A DNA stretch of 64,000 nt from Escherichia coli. GTDB taxonomy: Bacteria > Pseudomonadota > Gammaproteobacteria > Enterobacterales > Enterobacteriaceae. Positions 11,116-60,011 of this stretch are shown one piece after another. The position numbers and the translations under genes are program-made. Positions within the stretch are counted from its first letter, which is position 1. Each line of letters starts with the position of its first letter. The notes beneath the pieces were generated by a model that did no database searches, was not told where the DNA came from, and saw nothing but the letters and a program-made list of their open reading frames with translations. The stretch lies in assembly GCF_003334355.1 (NCBI RefSeq), contig NZ_QOWP01000011.1. One strand, written 5' to 3'.

Positions 11116-11719
11116 TGTAGTAATCTCAAACTTATATTGGGGTGGTTTGTTGAGGTAATAATAGAGCCTTAAATTCAGTTGTGCAATAGCCAGGAATGTA
11201 AGGAATTCAAAATTGTTCTTTATTTTGTGCCGCCAATAAATATCTTTTCATAAAATTAGCCAGAAAAGACGCGGCATATAGCCCTATTTACACCGATGAT
11301 TTCGCAGCACGTGAGGTTAAAACTTCCTGATTCATGTCACATTTTATGGGGAGATTATCGTAGGCTGACGACCTTTCAGTCTTCTGTATTAGTTGTGTTT
11401 ACGAGAATTCCCTATTAAGCGAATGATGAAAAGTAGAACAGTCGCAATAAGAGCATGGACTTAGTATTGCACTATCTCCTGGAGGTCAACAGAGGGCTAT
11501 TACTTGCGCAACAGGTTAAAGATTGTGAATAGTTACCAGCAGTCATTTACCCGCTTATAACAAGCGAGGCAGTTGTAATGATAGCTCAGAAGGATTATGC
11601 AAGGCTTCGTAAGGGAGAACGCATATACCCACTTCTGTGCATACTGTTGAGCTGAAAAACTGACGAATTATGATAAACTCCAGCCAACTTTATTTCATAT
11701 CATTGAGGGCCTGTGGCTG

Positions 11720-12337
11720 ATGGCACAGCTATATTTCTACTATTCCGCAATGAATGCGGGTAAGTCTACAGCATTGTTGCAATCTTCATACAATTACCAG
11801 GAACGCGGCATGCGCACTGTCGTATATACGGCAGAAATTGATGATCGCTTTGGTGCCGGGAAAGTCAGTTCGCGTATAGGTTTGTCATCGCCTGCAAAAT
11901 TATTTAACCAAAATTCATCATTATTTGATGAGATTCGTGCGGAACATGAACAGCAGGCAATTCATTGCGTACTGGTTGATGAATGCCAGTTTTTAACCAG
12001 ACAACAAGTATATGAATTATCGGAGGTTGTCGATCAACTCGATATACCCGTACTTTGTTATGGTTTACGTACCGATTTTCGAGGTGAATTATTTATTGGC
12101 AGCCAATACTTACTGGCATGGTCCGACAAACTGGTTGAATTAAAAACCATCTGTTTTTGTGGCCGTAAAGCAAGCATGGTGCTGCGTCTTGATCAAGCAG
12201 GCAGACCTTATAACGAAGGTGAGCAGGTGGTAATTGGTGGTAATGAACGATACGTTTCTGTATGCCGTAAACACTATAAAGAGGCGTTACAAGTCGACTC
12301 ATTAACGGCTATTCAGGAAAGGCATCGCCACGATTAA
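11720..12337 (+). CDS. tdk: thymidine kinase
   Basis: 205 aa; P-loop NAGKST near the N-terminus and C-terminal Cys zinc ribbon. Confidence 0.95.
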
Positions 12338-12351
12338 TAAGAATTTCTTTA

Positions 12352-12394
12352 CTGACAGGGTGAGCAGGGCACTTTTATCCTGTCAGTTCGTTTT
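12352..12394 (+). terminator. candidate terminator after tdk
   Basis: 8-bp stem ctgacagg/cctgtcag with large loop, followed by a T-rich tail; weaker than the others. Confidence 0.4.
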
Positions 12395-12618
12395 ACGCAC
12401 TTCTTCCGGGCTATATACCCTTCTCGGCAGTTTTTTAACGCCGCTATACGCCTCACAGGGCTCTTAAGCACCGACGTTGACTTGTGACCTGTAAAGTACA
12501 ATATCCCTGTGTTTAGGCGTTATACATCGTCGCAAATATGATGAAGGCTAATGCTGTCGGTTTATGGAAAAGTTGCTTTGGGTAAACAAAAAATACGGTC
12601 CCAGAAGGGCAATGCCGT

Positions 12619-13515
12619 TCACTTAAGAGGAGCGGCACTATGTTTCACAGGATAACGGGTTTTTGATATCTTAACCGACCTCGGCCTTGATGGTCGGGGG
12701 CGTTTTGTTATGAACACCACTTCCAGAGCACCCCGAAGATGCTCCAGTCGTTTCGGGATGGTCCCTGGTGACGCCGTGTTTCCCAGCTCTATCATTTCTG
12801 ATGCGATATTCTTCCACGCAGGCAGTAGCCAGTGGCGGTTACAACCCTTCTGGTTCAGCGTCAGCAGCAGGTCTTCGCTGTAAAAAAGTTTATCAAACAA
12901 CGTAATAGAGTTATCCGGGATGGTGGCGAGCATGGAGTGGGCCAGCACAGTTTCGCTCTGCCGGTAAGGTGCGGTCACGGCATTCAGCAGAATGTGACTT
13001 CCCAGGTTCATTAAGGCCACCAGACGCATAACCGGGTAGGCGTTCTGCCGCTTAGTGGATGTGTTGGCAGACCCATAATATTCACGCAGCTCGGGTTTAT
13101 CAGGTGTCCTGAACTGTGCGCCATCAATGGCAAAAAGTTGCAGGCCGTGCCAGTCATCCTTCAAGTAACGTTCCGCGCCCCTGTCTGTGCGGTCTGGCGG
13201 AAGAGCCATTCCACTGGGGCGGCCCCCACGCGCTGACGCGCCTGGGTGACAGCGCTGCGGGCCAGCAGGTTCATCCCCGCTTCGCCATCCGCGCTCAGGT
13301 TCAGACGGCGAACAACATCGGTAATTGGCTCATTGCACCACCATCCAGATAACCATGTCCCCCGGTAAACGACGGCGGCGAACGGTCGCATGAGCAGAAA
13401 ACGTCAGGCAGTGTTGTATCCACTCGGTGGGAAGGTGTTCTGCAAATAGTTGTGCAGAGGGCGGAGGCATAAGCGGATGGTCACTGAAATCGAGCAGATC
13501 ATTGAGAAGTGGCAT
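12619..13515 (-). pseudogene. insZ: degenerate IS4-family-like (DDE) transposase remnant, frameshifted into three ORF fragments (annotated insZ in K-12, as far as I recall)
   Basis: Three consecutive minus-strand ORFs (13330..13515, 13161..13391, 12619..13209) in different frames read as one transposase-like protein; no flanking inverted repeats identified. Confidence 0.6.
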
Positions 13516-13638
13516 AAGAAAACGGCTCCCTGTTGTGGAAGCCGTTATAGTGCCTCAGTTTAAGGATCGGTCAACTAATCCTTAACTGATCGGCATTGCC
13601 CAGAAGGGGCCGTTTATGTTGCCAGACAGCGCTACTGA

Positions 13639-16314
13639 TTAAGCGGATTTTTTCGCTTTTTTCTCAGCTTTAGCCGGAGCAGCTTCTTTCTTCGCTGCAG
13701 TTTCACCTTCTACATAATCACGACCGTAGTAGGTATCCAGCAGAATCTGTTTCAGCTCGGAGATCAGCGGGTAACGCGGGTTAGCGCCGGTGCACTGGTC
13801 ATCGAATGCATCTTCAGACAGTTTATCCACGTTCGCCAGGAAGTCTGCTTCCTGAACGCCAGCTTCACGGATAGATTTCGGAATACCCAGTTCAGCTTTC
13901 AGCGTTTCCAGCCATGCCAGCAGTTTCTCGATCTTAGCAGCAGTACGGTCGCCCGGTGCGCTCAGACCCAAGTGGTCGGCAATTTCAGCATAACGACGGC
14001 GAGCCTGCGGACGGTCATACTGGCTGAATGCAGTCTGCTTGGTCGGGTTGTCGTTCGCATTGTAGCGAATAACGTTACAAATCAGCAGGGCGTTTGCCAG
14101 ACCGTGCGGAATATGGAACTGGGAACCCAGTTTGTGCGCCATTGAGTGACATACACCCAGGAAGGCGTTCGCAAACGCGATACCCGCGATAGTCGCTGCA
14201 CTGTGAACACGTTCACGCGCTACCGGATTTTTAGACCCTTCGTGGTAGGACGCTGGCAGATATTCTTTCAGCAGTTTCAGTGCCTGCAGAGCCTGACCAT
14301 CAGAGAACTCAGATGCCAGTACAGAAACATAAGCTTCCATGGCGTGAGTTACTGCGTCCAGACCACCGAAAGCACACAGGGACTTCGGCATGTCCATAAC
14401 CAGGTTGGCGTCGACAATCGCCATATCCGGAGTCAGCGCATAGTCTGCCAGCGGATATTTCTGACCAGTAGCGTCGTCAGTTACAACCGCAAACGGAGTG
14501 ACTTCAGAACCTGTACCAGAAGTGGTGGTGACAGCGATCATTTTCGCTTTCACGCCCATTTTCGGGAACTTGTAGATACGTTTACGGATATCCATAAAGC
14601 GCAGCGCCAGCTCTTCGAAGTGAGTTTCCGGATGTTCGTACATAACCCACATGATCTTCGCGGCGTCCATCGGGGAACCACCACCCAGCGCGATAATCAC
14701 GTCTGGTTTGAAGGAGTTTGCCAGTTCTGCACCTTTACGAACGATGCTCAGGGTCGGGTCCGCTTCTACTTCGAAGAAGACTTCAGTTTCAACGCCTGCT
14801 GCTTTCAGTACGGAAGTGATCTGATCAGCATAACCATTGTTGAACAGGAAGCGGTCAGTCACGATGAGCGCACGTTTGTGGCCATCAGTAATCACTTCAT
14901 CCAGCGCGATTGGCAGGGAGCCACGGCGGAAGTAGATAGATTTCGGAAGTTTGTGCCACAACATGTTTTCAGCTCGCTTAGCAACGGTTTTCTTGTTGAT
15001 CAGGTGTTTCGGACCAACGTTTTCAGAGATGGAGTTACCACCCCAAGAACCACAACCCAGAGTCAGGGAAGGTGCGAGTTTGAAGTTATACAGGTCACCG
15101 ATACCACCCTGAGACGCTGGGGTGTTAATCAGGATACGCGCCGTTTTCATTTTCTGACCGAAGTAAGAAACGCGAGCCGGTTGGTTATCCTGGTCAGTGT
15201 ACAGGCAAGAGGTATGACCGATACCGCCCATAGCAACCAGTTTCTCTGCTTTTTCTACCGCGTCTTCGAAATCTTTAGCGCGGTACATTGCCAGAGTCGG
15301 GGACAGTTTTTCATGTGCGAACGGTTCGCTTTCATCAACAACGGTCACTTCACCGATCAGAATCTTGGTGTTTTCTGGTACAGAGAAGCCTGCCAGTTCA
15401 GCAATTTTATAGGCTGGCTGACCAACGATAGCCGCGTTCAGCGCACCGTTTTTCAGGATAACATCCTGAACAGCTTTCAGCTCTTTACCCTGCAACAGAT
15501 AGCCGCCGTGGGTTGCAAAACGTTCACGTACAGCATCATAAACAGAGTCAACAACAACAACAGACTGTTCAGAAGCACAGATTACGCCGTTGTCGAAGGT
15601 TTTGGACATCAGTACAGATGCAACTGCACGTTTGATATCAGCAGTTTCATCGATAACAACTGGAGTGTTGCCCGCGCCTACACCGATAGCTGGTTTACCG
15701 GAGCTGTATGCGGCTTTAACCATGCCCGGACCACCAGTCGCGAGGATCAGGTTGATGTCTGGGTGGTGCATCAGTGCGTTAGACAGTTCAACAGAAGGTT
15801 GATCGATCCAGCCGATCAGATCTTTCGGAGCACCGGCAGCGATAGCAGCCTGCAGAACGATATCAGCCGCTTTGTTGGTGGCATCTTTTGCACGCGGGTG
15901 CGGGGAGAAGATAATGGCGTTACGGGTCTTCAGACTGATCAGCGATTTGAAGATAGCAGTTGAAGTCGGGTTAGTGGTCGGAACGATACCGCAAATAATA
16001 CCGATTGGTTCAGCGATAGTGATGGTACCAAAAGTGTCGTCTTCAGACAGAACACCACAGGTTTTTTCATCTTTATAGGCGTTGTAGATATATTCAGAAG
16101 CAAAGTGGTTTTTGATCACTTTATCTTCGACGATACCCATGCCGGATTCGGCAACGGCCATTTTCGCGAGTGGGATTCGAGCATCTGCAGCAGCCAGAGC
16201 GGCGGCGCGGAAGATTTTGTCTACTTGCTCTTGAGTGAAACTGGCATATTCACGCTGGGCTTTTTTTACACGCTCTACGAGTGCGTTAAGTTCAGCGACA
16301 TTAGTAACAGCCAT
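13639..16314 (-). CDS. adhE: bifunctional acetaldehyde-CoA / alcohol dehydrogenase
   Basis: 891 aa; N-terminal aldehyde dehydrogenase and C-terminal iron-containing alcohol dehydrogenase domains; long untranslated leader upstream (16315..16790). Confidence 0.97.
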
Positions 16315-16790
16315 AATGCTCTCCTGATAATGTTAAACTTTTTTAGTAAATCATCTGCTCGAATACGAGAGTATAGTCAGTGCGGTGATGATTTGCTTAA
16401 CCTATGAAAATCAAAAGCTTACTCGCGCTCACACTCACTGTGATTTACTAAAAGAGTTTAAACATTAGAGTTATTATCTCTAATGCGTCACTTCCAGGTG
16501 GCGTAAGCAAGATTACTCACTTCTGGGTACTGATTACGTGATCCAAATCAAATTTTTGCAAAGCTGACACCTTTCAGCATCGCTTTTCGCCATTATAGCT
16601 AACAGTTAATAAATTGTAGTATGATTTGGTGGCTACATTAGCATGTTTTGCACAACTAGATAACAATAACGAATGATAGCAATTTTAAGTAGTTAGGAGG
16701 TGAAAAATGCTGTCAAAAGGCGTATTGTCAGCGCGTCTTTTCAACCTTATTTATGGCTAACATTATCCGGCTTTTGCTTCGGAGCTAACC

Positions 16791-17438
16791 GTGATTCAGA
16801 CCTTTTTTGATTTTCCCGTTTACTTCAAATTTTTCATCGGGTTATTTGCGCTGGTCAACCCGGTAGGGATTATTCCCGTCTTTATCAGCATGACCAGTTA
16901 TCAGACAGCGGCAGCGCGAAACAAAACTAACCTTACAGCCAACCTGTCTGTGGCCATTATCTTGTGGATCTCGCTTTTTCTCGGCGACACGATTCTGCAA
17001 CTTTTTGGTATATCAATTGATTCGTTCCGTATCGCCGGGGGCATCCTGGTGGTGACGATAGCGATGTCGATGATCAGCGGCAAGCTTGGCGAGGATAAAC
17101 AGAACAAGCAAGAAAAATCAGAAACCGCGGTACGTGAAAGCATTGGTGTGGTGCCATTGGCGTTGCCGTTGATGGCGGGGCCAGGGGCGATCAGTTCTAC
17201 CATCGTCTGGGGTACGCGTTATCACAGCATTAGCTATCTGTTTGGTTTCTTTGTGGCTATTGCATTGTTCGCTTTATGTTGCTGGGGATTGTTCCGCATG
17301 GCACCGTGGCTGGTACGGGTTTTACGCCAGACCGGCATCAACGTGATTACGCGTATTATGGGGCTATTGCTGATGGCATTGGGGATTGAATTTATCGTTA
17401 CTGGTATTAAGGGGATTTTCCCCGGCCTGCTTAATTAA
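16791..17438 (+). CDS. ychE: MarC-family (UPF0056) inner membrane protein
   Basis: 215 aa multi-pass hydrophobic ORF, GTG start. Confidence 0.88.
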   Translation: MIQTFFDFPVYFKFFIGLFALVNPVGIIPVFISMTSYQTAAARNKTNLTANLSVAIILWISLFLGDTILQLFGISIDSFRIAGGILVVTIAMSMISGKLGEDKQNKQEKSETAVRESIGVVPLALPLMAGPGAISSTIVWGTRYHSISYLFGFFVAIALFALCCWGLFRMAPWLVRVLRQTGINVITRIMGLLLMALGIEFIVTGIKGIFPGLLN

Positions 17439-18175
17439 TTCCTTTCAAATGAAACGGAGCTGCCATGCTCCGTTTACTTCGTCATTATTTTTACTTTGTT
17501 CCCGCGCAGTTATCAAAAGCAAAAGGAATAGGTAAAAATATTCTTCTCAAATTACAGTTAGTTATAAGGATTTCCTTAACTGCTTCTCCTCACCATCATG
17601 TTATTTTCGCCACATCATAATCCTGGGCTTGCTGAAGAATAATTGAAATGATATTAGTAATTCCACTGCCTTTGGTAGAGGAAAGTGCTAAATAATAATC
17701 AATTGTTAAATTATTGTGCATTTCACTACTGGAACTGTAATCAGAAAAGATAGACATGCTTAGCCAATCTCTATTTGATTGAATTGAAAGATGTTTGTTA
17801 AGGCATGGATGCAAGCTATAGATTCTGATACGGTCAATAAAAGAGAATTGCTTAACAATTTTGCAAAATGTATTGGCGAGTAAGAACCGCATTTGGTACT
17901 TTCCGGGCAACCGCCAGACGATTCTTTATTGGTAATGAGAATAATTAACAATTAAAGAGCGTCGCGAAAGAATAATGTGTCTCGACAGGGGAGACACAGT
18001 ACGAATCGACATAAGGTGATCGTCTGAATCACCAGAATAAATAAAGTCGGTGATAGTAATACGTAACGATAAAGTAACCTGACAGCAGAAAGTCTCCGAG
18101 CCTGTGCAGGGTCCCAATCCGGGATTACACATGCTGGTTAATACCAGTAATTATAATGAGGGAGTCCAAAAAACA

Positions 18176-23762: not shown

Positions 23763-23771
23763 ACACAATAA

Positions 23772-23797
23772 GGGCTGACAGTTGTCAGCCCTTTTTC
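23772..23797 (+). terminator. rho-independent terminator of the opp operon
   Basis: 8-bp stem gggctgac/gtcagccc, 4-nt loop, 5-T run, 10 bp after the oppF stop. Confidence 0.85.
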
Positions 23798-28082: not shown

Positions 28083-28802
28083 ATGACCCTTGATTTACCT
28101 CGCCGCTTCCCCTGGCCGACGTTACTTTCGGTCTGCATTCATGGTGCTGTTGTGGCGGGTCTGCTCTATACCTCGGTACATCAGGTTATTGAACTACCTG
28201 CGCCTGCGCAGCCGATTTCTGTCACGATGGTTACGCCTGCTGATCTCGAACCGCCACAAGCCGTTCAGCCGCCACCGGAGCCGGTGGTAGAGCCAGAACC
28301 GGAACCTGAGCCGATCCCCGAACCGCCAAAAGAAGCACCGGTGGTCATTGAAAAGCCGAAGCCGAAACCTAAGCCAAAACCGAAGCCGGTGAAAAAGGTA
28401 CAGGAGCAGCCAAAACGCGATGTCAAACCCGTAGAGTCGCGTCCGGCATCACCGTTTGAAAATACGGCACCGGCACGCCTGACATCAAGTACAGCAACGG
28501 CTGCAACCAGCAAGCCGGTTACCAGTGTGGCTTCAGGACCACGCGCATTAAGCCGTAATCAGCCGCAGTATCCGGCACGAGCACAGGCATTGCGCATTGA
28601 AGGGCAGGTTAAAGTTAAATTTGACGTTACGCCGGATGGTCGCGTGGATAACGTACAAATCCTCTCAGCCAAGCCTGCGAACATGTTTGAGCGTGAGGTG
28701 AAAAATGCGATGCGCAGATGGCGTTATGAGCCGGGTAAGCCAGGCAGTGGGATTGTGGTGAATATCCTGTTTAAAATTAACGGCACCACCGAAATTCAGT
28801 AA
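28083..28802 (+). CDS. tonB: energy transducer TonB
   Basis: ORF track 28032..28802 trimmed to the ATG at 28083 (239 aa); N-terminal anchor, (EP)n and (KP)n proline-rich spacer, C-terminal domain. Confidence 0.96.
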   Translation: MTLDLPRRFPWPTLLSVCIHGAVVAGLLYTSVHQVIELPAPAQPISVTMVTPADLEPPQAVQPPPEPVVEPEPEPEPIPEPPKEAPVVIEKPKPKPKPKPKPVKKVQEQPKRDVKPVESRPASPFENTAPARLTSSTATAATSKPVTSVASGPRALSRNQPQYPARAQALRIEGQVKVKFDVTPDGRVDNVQILSAKPANMFEREVKNAMRRWRYEPGKPGSGIVVNILFKINGTTEIQ

Positions 28803-28809
28803 GCAGAAA

Positions 28810-28839
28810 GTCAAAAGCCTCCGACCGGAGGCTTTTGAC
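28810..28839. terminator. bidirectional rho-independent terminator shared by tonB (+) and yciA (-)
   Basis: Near-perfect 30-bp palindrome gtcaaaagcctccgaccggaggcttttgac giving a hairpin followed by a U-run on either strand. Confidence 0.85.
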
Positions 28840-28841
28840 TA

Positions 28842-29240
28842 TTACTCAACAGGTAAGGCGCGAGGTTTTCCTTCAGGATCAACCGCGACATACTTAAATA
28901 ATGCTTCTGTCGCTTTATAGCGTTGCCCAATTGGTTCAGACGCTACTTTTTTCACCCACACTTCAATATTAATGCTGACCGATGTCGTCCCTTTCTGGAC
29001 ACAGCGTGCATAGCAGCACACCACATCGCCGACCGCAACCGGCCGTAAGAAAGTCATTCCTTCAACCCGCACAGTCACTACGCGACCGTGGGCAATTTCT
29101 TTTGCCAGAATAGCGCCGCCAATATCCATTTGTGACATTAACCAACCACCAAAGATGTCACCATTGGCATTGGTATCGGCGGGCATGGCTAAAGTACGTA
29201 AAACAAGATCGCCCTGAGGGACGTTATGTGTTGTAGACAT
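28842..29240 (-). CDS. yciA: acyl-CoA thioesterase (hotdog fold)
   Basis: 132 aa ORF. Confidence 0.92.
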   Translation of the reverse strand: MSTTHNVPQGDLVLRTLAMPADTNANGDIFGGWLMSQMDIGGAILAKEIAHGRVVTVRVEGMTFLRPVAVGDVVCCYARCVQKGTTSVSINIEVWVKKVASEPIGQRYKATEALFKYVAVDPEGKPRALPVE

Positions 29241-39961: not shown

Positions 39962-39990
39962 AAAAAAAAGCCCGCTCATTAGGCGGGCTG
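39962..39990 (-). promoter_or_regulatory. trp attenuator (3:4 terminator hairpin plus U8 tract)
   Basis: Minus-strand AGCCCGCCTAATGAGCGGGCTTTTTTTT between trpL and trpE. Confidence 0.92.
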
Positions 39991-40031
39991 GGTATCTGAT
40001 TGCTTTACGCATGGTGAATACACTGCCCGTT

Positions 40032-40076
40032 TCAGGAAGTGCGCCACCAACCTTTCAGTACGAAAATTGCTTTCAT
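40032..40076 (-). CDS. trpL: trp operon leader peptide (14 aa, [14 protein letters not shown]) with tandem Trp codons
   Basis: Minus strand ATGAAAGCAATTTTCGTACTGAAAGGTTGGTGGCGCACTTCCTGA; below ORF-track size cutoff, found by direct reading. Confidence 0.93.
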
Positions 40077-41739: not shown

Positions 41740-43635
41740 ATGGCAGGGAAGTTTCGCTGCATTTTGCTGTTGATAGCAGGGCTGTTTGTATCATCTCTAA
41801 GTTATGCAGAAAACACGGAGATCCCTTCTTATGAAGAAGGGATCTCGCTCTTTGATGTTGAAGCCACTCTGCAACCAGATGGGGTGCTCGACATCAAAGA
41901 AAATATTCATTTTCAGGCGCGAAATCAGCAGATTAAGCACGGCTTTTATCGTGATTTACCACGACTCTGGATGCAGCCTGATGGGGACGCTGCACTGCTG
42001 AACTATCATATTGTTGGCGTCACCCGTGATGGTATTCCTGAACCCTGGCATCTTGACTGGCATATCGGGTTAATGAGTATTGTCGTGGGCGATAAACAAC
42101 GTTTCTTGCCTCAAGGCGACTATCATTATCAAATTCATTATCAGGTTAAAAATGCTTTCCTGCGTGAGGGGGATTCTGATCTGCTAATCTGGAACGTGAC
42201 CGGTAACCACTGGCCGTTTGAAATTTATAAGACCCGTTTTTCTCTCCAGTTCTCTAATATTGCGGGTAATCCATTTAGCGAAATCGATCTCTTTACCGGA
42301 GAAGAGGGCGACACATATCGTAATGGCCGCATCCTTGAGGACGGAAGAATTGAATCCCGCGATCCGTTTTATCGTGAAGATTTCACGGTCCTCTACCGCT
42401 GGCCTCACGCTTTACTTAGCAATGCCTCGGCTCCGCAAACGACGAATATTTTCAGCCATCTTCTTTTACCCTCCACGTCATCGTTGTTAATTTGGTTTCC
42501 GTGTCTGTTCCTGGTTTGTGGATGGTTATATCTCTGGAAGCGCAGGCCGCAATTTACGCCGGTAGATGTGATTGAAACCGATGTCATTCCGCCAGATTAC
42601 ACGCCCGGCATGTTACGTCTCGATGCGAAGCTAGTTTACGACGATAAAGGTTTTTGTGCCGATATCGTAAATCTGATTGTGAAAGGAAAAATTCATCTGG
42701 AAGATCAGTCTGACAAGAACCAGCAAATCCTGATTCGTGTTAATGAAGGCGCGACCAGAAATAATGCGGTATTACTGCCCGCAGAGCAGTTATTACTGGA
42801 AGCGTTATTTCGTAAAGGCGATAAGGTCGTTCTTACGGGGAGACGCAACAGAGTCTTACGCAGGGCATTTTTACGGATGCAGAAATTTTATCTGCCGCGT
42901 AAAAAGTCTTCGTTTTACCGGTCTGATACTTTTTTGCAATGGGGTGGACTGGCAATATTGGCGGTCATTCTTTACGGTAACTTGAGTCCTGTAGGCTGGG
43001 CAGGAATGAGTCTGGTGGGCGATATGTTTATTATGATCTGCTGGATTATTCCTTTTTTATTTTGTTCCCTTGAGCTTTTGTTTGCCCGCGATGATGACAA
43101 GCCTTGCGTTAATCGTGTAATCATCACTTTGTTTTTACCACTGATTTGTTCAGGCGTGGCCTTCTATTCTCTCTACATCAATGTCGGAGATGTATTCTTT
43201 TACTGGTATATGCCAGCGGGTTATTTTACCGCTGTTTTCCTGACCGGTTATCTCACTGGCATGGGGTATATTTTTCTGCCAAAGTTTACCCAAACTGGAC
43301 AGCAACGTTATGCCCACGGTGAAGCTATCGTTAACTATCTTGCGCGTAAAGAGGCGGCAACACACAGTGGGCGGCGTCGGAAAGGGGAAACACGGAAACT
43401 GGATTATGCGTTGCTAGGTTGGGCGGTCTCGGCAAACCTTGGCAGAGAATGGGCAGCACGTATCACCCCATCACTCACAGCGGCTGTTCGCGCCCCGGAA
43501 ATTGCCCGTAGCGGCGTTTTATTCTCATTACAGACGCACCTAAGTTGCGGGGCCTATACCAGTTTGTTGGGGCGAAGTTATTCCGGTGGTGGTGCTGGCG
43601 GCGGCGCGGGTGGCGGAGGCGGTGGTGGCTGGTAA
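41740..43635 (+). CDS. yciQ: DUF2207-family membrane protein with Gly-rich C-terminal tail
   Basis: 631 aa; signal/anchor at N-terminus, several TM segments, C-terminus ...SYSGGGAGGGAGGGGGGGW encoded by a (GGN)n run. Confidence 0.88.
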   Translation: MAGKFRCILLLIAGLFVSSLSYAENTEIPSYEEGISLFDVEATLQPDGVLDIKENIHFQARNQQIKHGFYRDLPRLWMQPDGDAALLNYHIVGVTRDGIPEPWHLDWHIGLMSIVVGDKQRFLPQGDYHYQIHYQVKNAFLREGDSDLLIWNVTGNHWPFEIYKTRFSLQFSNIAGNPFSEIDLFTGEEGDTYRNGRILEDGRIESRDPFYREDFTVLYRWPHALLSNASAPQTTNIFSHLLLPSTSSLLIWFPCLFLVCGWLYLWKRRPQFTPVDVIETDVIPPDYTPGMLRLDAKLVYDDKGFCADIVNLIVKGKIHLEDQSDKNQQILIRVNEGATRNNAVLLPAEQLLLEALFRKGDKVVLTGRRNRVLRRAFLRMQKFYLPRKKSSFYRSDTFLQWGGLAILAVILYGNLSPVGWAGMSLVGDMFIMICWIIPFLFCSLELLFARDDDKPCVNRVIITLFLPLICSGVAFYSLYINVGDVFFYWYMPAGYFTAVFLTGYLTGMGYIFLPKFTQTGQQRYAHGEAIVNYLARKEAATHSGRRRKGETRKLDYALLGWAVSANLGREWAARITPSLTAAVRAPEIARSGVLFSLQTHLSCGAYTSLLGRSYSGGGAGGGAGGGGGGGW

Positions 43636-47377: not shown

Positions 47378-47383
47378 AAGACA

Positions 47384-47410
47384 AACGCGAGGGTAAGACC
47401 TCGCGTTTTG
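47384..47410 (+). terminator. rho-independent terminator after sohB (overlaps the yciN 3' end region)
   Basis: 9-bp stem aacgcgagg/cctcgcgtt, 6-nt loop, T4 tract. Confidence 0.75.
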
Positions 47411-52454: not shown

Positions 52455-52826
52455 TTATCATCATTCTTATTACCCATTTTTAATGAATTAAAGGGCTTTT
52501 AATACACCGCAGCAATAACAGCTTGAGTTATCTCAACACAAAATAATAACCGTTAAGGGTGTAGCCTATGATCAACACAAATATGAAATATTGGTCCTGG
52601 ATGGGCGCGTTTTCTCTGTCGATGCTCTTCTGGGCCGAACTCCTCTGGATCATTACTCACTGATCCTTGACCCCGCTGCGGCGGGGTTGTCATTTGCTTT
52701 GCCACAAGGTTTCTCCTCTTTTATCAATTTGGGTTGTTATCAAATCGTTACGCGATGTTTGTGTTATCTTTAATATTCACCCTGAAGAGAATCAGGGCTT
52801 CGCAACCCTGTCATTAAGGAGGAGCT

Positions 52827-55502: not shown

Positions 55503-55508
55503 CAAGTA

Positions 55509-55543
55509 TTTGCTTGCCGGTTATTTTGCTTCCGGCAAGCAAA
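55509..55543. terminator. hairpin between convergent acnA and ribA (candidate bidirectional terminator)
   Basis: 12-bp stem tttgcttgccgg/ccggcaagcaaa with 11-nt loop; no strong U-tract on either side, hence modest confidence. Confidence 0.45.
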
Positions 55544-55565
55544 TGAATTACACAATGCAAGAGGG

Positions 55566-59985: not shown

Positions 59986-60011
59986 AAAGCCACGGATATA
60001 TCCGTGGCTTT
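59986..60011 (+). terminator. rho-independent terminator after pyrF-yciH
   Basis: 11-bp stem aaagccacgga/tccgtggcttt with 4-nt loop. Confidence 0.8.

Follow-up and report, generated by a model that had tools for sequence, protein, structure and literature searches.

The palindrome between tonB and yciA of Escherichia coli: a known bidirectional terminator recognised from raw sequence

The palindrome at positions 28809..28840 of the E. coli DNA that we analysed (one stretch of 64,000 nt, called the window below) is very probably a bidirectional intrinsic (Rho-independent) terminator common to the converging tonB and yciA transcription units. This assignment draws on the anatomy, position, departure from chance and conservation of the element, all of which were observed in this work, and takes its bidirectional Rho-independent activity from the literature. 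The element has been known since 1985. The title of Postle and Good (Cell 41:577-585, pmid 2985285) calls it bidirectional and rho-independent; the 'tonB-P14 terminator' has become a standard vector part, present in pJAZZ and other vectors, and the tonB/yciA gap is used as a chromosomal integration site. The locus of Postle and Good is the same as ours and the terminator sequence is identical, with no material difference here. The initial annotation of the window, made from the letters alone, had presented the site as known biology, which is accurate; the observation is correct but ordinary.

The tonB coding sequence occupies 28083..28802 on the + strand (ORF list and RefSeq annotation of the identical sequence in ER1709 and MG1655) and ends with the stop codon TAA at 28800-28802, representing the upstream transcription unit on that strand. 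The yciA coding sequence, which encodes an acyl-CoA thioesterase and is the 'P14' opposing gene, lies at 28842..29240 on the - strand (ORF list and RefSeq annotation), with its stop codon at 28842-28844; it closes a series of three genes on this strand (yciC, yciB, yciA). The two genes converge on a gap of 39 bp (28803-28841) with a single hairpin inside, where about 40 bp had been annotated initially, and RefSeq confirms the identities of both genes. The gap reads GCAGAA-AGTCAAAAGCCTCCG-AC-CGGAGGCTTTTGACT-A. The palindrome begins 6 nt past the tonB stop and finishes 1 nt short of the yciA stop, so that on both sides the hairpin has the position of an intrinsic terminator, just 3' of the last stop codon. 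Measured from the stop codons, the core stem sets in after 14 nt on the tonB side and after 9 nt on the yciA side, and the outer stem only 1 nt past the yciA stop. A stretch of 1301 bp spanning tonB-yciA is an exact substring of K-12 MG1655 (NC_000913.3; MG1655 coordinate = window coordinate + 1,283,006), and this 1301-bp site and its gene order were found in 5414 of 5426 complete E. coli genomes at an identity of at least 95%. Over its full length the window shows 99.3-99.5% identity to MG1655 and is without the IS5U copy upstream of oppA, which marks its source as an E. coli other than K-12; with IS5U absent, coordinates before ~17688 (window 1-17691) differ by 1198 from the MG1655 offset given above. 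A plasmid search gave only 12 records, which have native yciA/tonB annotation or chromosome size and are most likely chromosomal, not a sign of mobility.

The repeat finder returned perfect 15-nt arms, 100% complementary, at 28809-28823 and 28826-28840, on either side of a non-palindromic 2-nt centre (AC, 28824-28825). A near-perfect palindrome of 30 bp had been annotated at 28810..28839; the palindrome is real, but that interval misses one base on either side, and the arms contain no mismatch. RNA copied from the palindrome on either strand has a 14-bp stem and a 4-nt loop. No other perfect-arm hairpin in the 64-kb window is as long. In 30 dinucleotide-preserving shuffles of the window arms reached 12 nt at most, and hairpins with arms of 12 nt or more occurred at a mean of 0.07 per shuffle, compared to 11 hairpin/loop combinations in the real window. 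The RNA fold energies of the site are -24.5 kcal/mol on the + strand and -28.4 kcal/mol on the - strand (z of about -6.7), and none of 200 shuffles gave a fold as stable as the real site. The hairpin is not a chance feature.

Its anatomy is nested. The terminator hairpin proper is a GC-rich core, GCCTCC-GACC-GGAGGC, at 28817..28832 (6 bp, 4-nt loop, -10.4 kcal/mol). On its 5' side stands the A-tract AAAA (28813..28816), the complement of the U-tract in yciA transcripts and, in RNA of the tonB direction, the pairing partner of the U-tract, and on its 3' side the T-tract TTTT (28833..28836), the U-tract for tonB-direction transcripts, with a moderately U-rich continuation, GACTATTACT. Outside the tracts, an Escherichia-specific extension AGTC (28809..28812) pairs with GACT (28837..28840), which carries the C28839T site discussed below. 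The extended 14-bp stem reaches -23.5 kcal/mol on both strands, and the core and the extended stem both have the GC-rich stem-loop character of an intrinsic terminator. The A-tract mirrors the T-tract; since the DNA is palindromic, what precedes the stem as an A-tract on one strand is read as the U-tract from the other, and both strands encode a hairpin followed by a U-tract, as expected of a bidirectional terminator.

In order to score the two directions we used a d'Aubenton-Carafa-type score with ViennaRNA energies, in which the hairpin is taken as the core stem and is followed by the tail. The tails after the core stem are UUUUGACUAUU (+ strand, tonB) and UUUUGACUUUCUGCUU (- strand, yciA), each with a U-tract, and their tail scores are 3.37 in the tonB direction and 3.51 in the yciA direction. 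The resulting terminator scores on core stem and tail, +7.2 for tonB and +9.7 for yciA, are positive yet modest, and they become negative if the whole 14-bp stem is counted as the hairpin. This explains the result of a simple consensus scan, which takes the maximal stem and detects a terminator on the - strand only. The initial annotation's hairpin and U-tract in both orientations is borne out by positive scores on both strands, with the correction that the tracts lie inside the palindrome and are short, namely four consecutive U followed by GACU. Promoter scans found nothing at the palindrome, so that a promoter was discarded as a reading, and Rfam has no family at gathering score over the tonB/yciA site. 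Low-threshold Rfam matches to miRNA, leader and sRNA models (16-22 bits) were rejected as generic hairpin matches.

On this anatomy, nascent RNA from either strand would fold the GCCUCC-N4-GGAGGC hairpin directly before the UUUU run, and the transcript would be released through the weak rU:dA hybrid together with hairpin invasion. The predicted 3' ends fall at about 28839-28841 on the + strand and at about 28808-28810 on the - strand, and with such ends the two mRNAs would share some 30 nt (~30 nt) of complementary sequence at their termini. The A:U pairs and the outer AGUC:GACU pairs would lengthen the stem to 14 bp, and this long stem probably also acts as a stable 3' hairpin on the released RNAs.

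The published activity data accord with a nested arrangement. In the in vivo terminator panel of Cambray 2013, tonB is listed among the terminators with an extended stem, in which the extension takes in part of the U-tail and a G-C pair closes the stem; the AGTC/GACT extension seen here corresponds to this. The same study describes the minimal tonB construct (hairpin and U-tail) as weaker than a version with 30 nt of native context and groups it with the poor terminators. These results match the nested anatomy and the compensatory changes that we see here. The poor performance of the minimal construct alone in a one-directional reporter may also be read in another way, in which the hairpin mainly pauses and positions RNA polymerase, and termination becomes efficient only when converging polymerases collide head-on, with trailing co-directional collisions in addition. 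The element does stand between convergent genes, and the U-tracts of its hairpin are short; inefficient termination has been reported for most convergent E. coli operons; and a collision model has been described for bidirectional terminators between convergent genes, for example ynaJ-uspE (bioRxiv 10.1101/2022.10.23.513370). However, the Cambray 2013 reporter is one-directional with no converging promoter, and the version of tonB with native flanks terminates in it. The element also serves as a stand-alone vector terminator, and the title of Postle and Good 1985 calls it rho-independent and bidirectional. Collision-dependent terminators (Ju et al. 2019; the ynaJ-uspE model) likewise involve two convergent genes with a hairpin where they overlap, and 3' ends that are complementary, but they are described as unlike intrinsic terminators and weak alone, whereas the tonB/yciA element has a canonical hairpin-plus-U arrangement on both strands. 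The preprint's class is in the same way set apart from the intrinsic terminators that the tonB/yciA element resembles, and the preprint makes no mention of tonB/yciA. We consider a collision-dependent mechanism unlikely as the main account; collisions may contribute but are unneeded for an element that is active as a stand-alone part.

The spacing between stop codon and hairpin deserves a separate remark. A terminating ribosome is reported to depress terminator efficiency when stop and hairpin are close (PMC4824070), and Li et al. 2015 report that a terminator a few bp past the gene is almost completely repressed, with efficiency rising with distance. The tight spacing after the yciA stop counts against the intrinsic-terminator reading, as do the short U-tracts, the modest scores and the poor minimal construct.

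Direct evidence of RNA 3' ends was sought in the Term-seq tables of Adams et al. 2021 (LB and M63 glucose), which hold no curated 3' end here on either strand (MG1655 13117xx-13118xx). This too speaks against the intrinsic-terminator reading; low expression in LB and M63 glucose is a plausible reason for it. Supplementary file 2 of the same study places a bicyclomycin-sensitive (Rho-dependent) termination region on the + strand, with its peak at 28962 (MG1655 1311968). This region is antisense to yciA and lies ~120 nt downstream of the hairpin on the tonB strand, not at the hairpin. Its coverage upstream/downstream is 64/22 without bicyclomycin and 59/67 with it, in 800-nt windows and at low counts. 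The tables list no Rho region on the - strand at the site. The + strand region would fit incomplete termination in the tonB direction, which is a further point against the preferred reading, and it suggests either tonB-direction leak-through with Rho as a back-up or independently started antisense transcription that is suppressed by Rho.

The same region invites a different account, in which Rho ends transcription downstream, 3'-5' exonucleases trim the RNA back to the 14-bp stem, and the hairpin is chiefly a stabiliser of the 3' end or a processing stop. The high stability of the full stem (-23.5 kcal/mol) and the reported trimming of Rho-terminated 3' ends by 3'-5' exonucleases would agree with this. 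A pure exonuclease block, however, needs no U-run, and here both strands have a canonical U-run behind the GC core, kept across genera. The element is moreover rho-independent according to the title of the 1985 report, and there is no - strand Rho region in the Adams 2021 tables. We regard trimming to the stem as quite unlikely to be the main role of the element, and an intrinsic terminator in both directions is the reading that we retain.

We then considered variation within the species. A 66-nt query over the site returned 5424 records, with 3264 at 99% identity or more, 2055 at 95-99% and 105 at 90-95%; about 40% of complete genomes depart from the K-12 allele somewhere in these 66 nt. Among the four variant strains that we sampled, two changes occur near the hairpin: G28806T, which falls short of the palindrome, and C28839T, which hits its outer arm. 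All four strains keep the core and both A/T tracts intact. C28839T is a common E. coli polymorphism. It turns the closing G-C pair into G.U in the tonB RNA and into an A.C mismatch in the yciA RNA, and the full-stem energy goes from -23.5 to -21.3 kcal/mol in the former and to -19.8 kcal/mol in the latter. The 'perfect' palindrome is consequently a trait of K-12-like alleles and is not fixed in the species: the description as perfect holds for the K-12-like allele of this window, and does not extend to the outermost pairs in general, which are Escherichia-specific and polymorphic within E. coli. Insertion sequences are also found at the site. E. coli N64 carries an IS200C copy that abuts the palindrome on its 3' side, immediately behind 28840 (L089, 1549-2268), and that adds its own terminal hairpins between tonB and yciA; MC4100_0.1s and WP7-S17-ESBL-04 have IS1A in the tonB-yciA region.

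The polymorphism and the downstream Rho region together allow a more elaborate proposal. The tonB gene is under Fur repression, which is lifted in iron limitation. The element might then act as a leaky valve that is specific to direction and strain, with tonB read-through past the short U-tract into antisense yciA/yciB/yciC under iron limitation, a Rho stop at ~28962, and C28839T tuning the leak by weakening the outer stem unequally on the two strands (G.U against A.C). If true, such a valve would couple iron status to the expression of yciA and its upstream same-strand neighbours. We think this improbable, and continue with the bidirectional intrinsic terminator.

Conservation was assessed by a scan with YciA, one genome per species, which gave 80 Enterobacteriaceae loci. 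In 53 of them tonB converges on yciA, and the hairpin is present in 38 of these 53 species, belonging to seven genera (Escherichia, Citrobacter, Enterobacter, Kosakonia, Lelliottia, Leclercia and Silvania). An identical core, A(n)-GCCTCC-loop-GGAGGC-T(n), occurs in 37 of the 53, with a gap of 26-48 bp, an invariance that is partly circular in that the hairpin class was defined by the core motif, for which reason core covariation is not assessable either. One further species (L057) has a 5-bp variant, GCCTC/GAGGC, with A7/T7. Within the hairpin class the identity of the TonB C-terminal domain goes down to ~70%, the loop has 25 different sequences of 3-6 nt, and the median U count in the first 8 nt is 7 in the tonB direction and 6 in the yciA direction. 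The symmetric A/T tracts keep near-complete complementarity for ~6 positions (36 distinct sequences). What carries information in this comparison is how often the hairpin occurs (38 of 53), how freely its loop varies and that both tracts are kept.

The flanking tracts also carry occasional complementary double changes, namely T-A in a Lelliottia locus (L023) and C-G/T-A in Escherichia, and an Enterobacter locus (L055) has the tract pair G-C where its relatives have A-C. Such double changes weaken the U-tract both ways, and are sensible only if the extension pairs, or as a product of quasi-palindrome correction. They argue that the stem extension pairs. That the palindrome is perfect could, instead of selection, go back to template-switch correction of a quasi-palindrome.

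Other lineages have different arrangements. Two Salmonella loci have another GC hairpin in the same gap, without U-tracts. In the Citrobacter freundii group, and only there, REP-like GCCGGATG repeats fill the tonB/yciA gap, and in the three Mangrovibacter loci, with a gap of 18-19 bp, the hairpin reaches into the end of the tonB coding sequence. The gene facing yciA in Klebsiella, Raoultella and Kluyvera is yniB-like, and the hairpin there is GCCCGGC/GCCGGGC. The tonB/yciA terminator has been replaced in several lineages. The perfect dyad symmetry, the other hairpins and REP-like repeats in the gap of Salmonella and the Citrobacter freundii group, and the IS200C copy exactly at the palindrome edge in one strain might be taken to mean that the palindrome acts at the DNA level, as the site of a dimeric protein, a REP-type repeat or a cruciform, and not as an RNA signal. 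The palindrome is, however, single-copy in each genome, and a REP element was rejected on this count (median of 1 place per genome, 5423 genomes). A protein site would be expected to keep a fixed spacing between its half-sites, whereas here the length of the centre varies; the 25 loop variants differ in both sequence and length, yet complementarity between the arms is retained, as expected of an RNA stem-loop. A DNA-level element is extremely improbable in our judgement, and the comparative data are better read as those of a terminator hairpin in RNA.

Comparison to known systems places the element near the symmetric ('hypersymmetric') bidirectional terminators, of which Tn10 tetA/orfL, the terminator of Wright, Kumar and Hayward 1992 and, in this window, galU/hns at 10654-10678 are examples. 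The tonB/yciA element has in common with them a GC-rich stem, flanking A- and T-tracts and a location between convergent genes. It differs in that its A/T tracts are shorter (4+4) and that the stem is prolonged by a further 4 bp outside them, with a G-C pair closing it; owing to this extension no other hairpin in the window has perfect arms of such length. The convergent junctions of the window are where long perfect-arm hairpins cluster, namely galU/hns, oppF/yciU, tonB/yciA, sohB/yciN, acnA/ribA and yciH/osmB. Besides galU/hns, symmetric hairpins with A/T-flanked GC stems are found at oppF/yciU (23770-23793), sohB/yciN (47383-47408) and yciH/osmB (59986-60011), the last being a perfect 26-bp palindrome. 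The hns Term-seq 3' ends of Adams 2021 map at the galU/hns hairpin.

The acnA/ribA hairpin had been annotated as a weaker analogue without clear U-tracts. It is real, at 55508-55544, with 13-nt arms, an 11-nt loop and -20 kcal/mol, and its intrinsic-terminator score is strongly negative; Adams 2021 has no Term-seq 3' end for it. With no U-tract on either strand, it fits the collision-dependent class better than tonB/yciA does, and it could be a collision-type or a Rho- or processing-associated 3' structure. Perfect-arm hairpins also lie inside coding sequences, at 41818-41846 and 8687-8715; the one in yciQ has 13-nt arms and a 3-nt loop and lies ~80 nt into the coding sequence, and the one in rssB has 10-nt arms. 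At gathering score, Rfam matched four RtT repeats interleaved with two tRNAs at 4901-5815 on the - strand, the tRNAs matching tyrT/tyrV once the coordinate shift is applied, the leader of the trp operon at 39962-40055 on the - strand, and the sRNA STnc180 at 52495-52697 on the + strand, between cysB and acnA.

The tonB/yciA site may serve as a positive control, in which a true bidirectional terminator was recognised from raw sequence. The comparative data illustrate how such a terminator is kept in the family, with the stem and both U-tracts held across seven genera and the loop drifting freely. The double changes in the A:U pairs and the outer stem accord with the published evidence that the extension of the stem aids efficiency.
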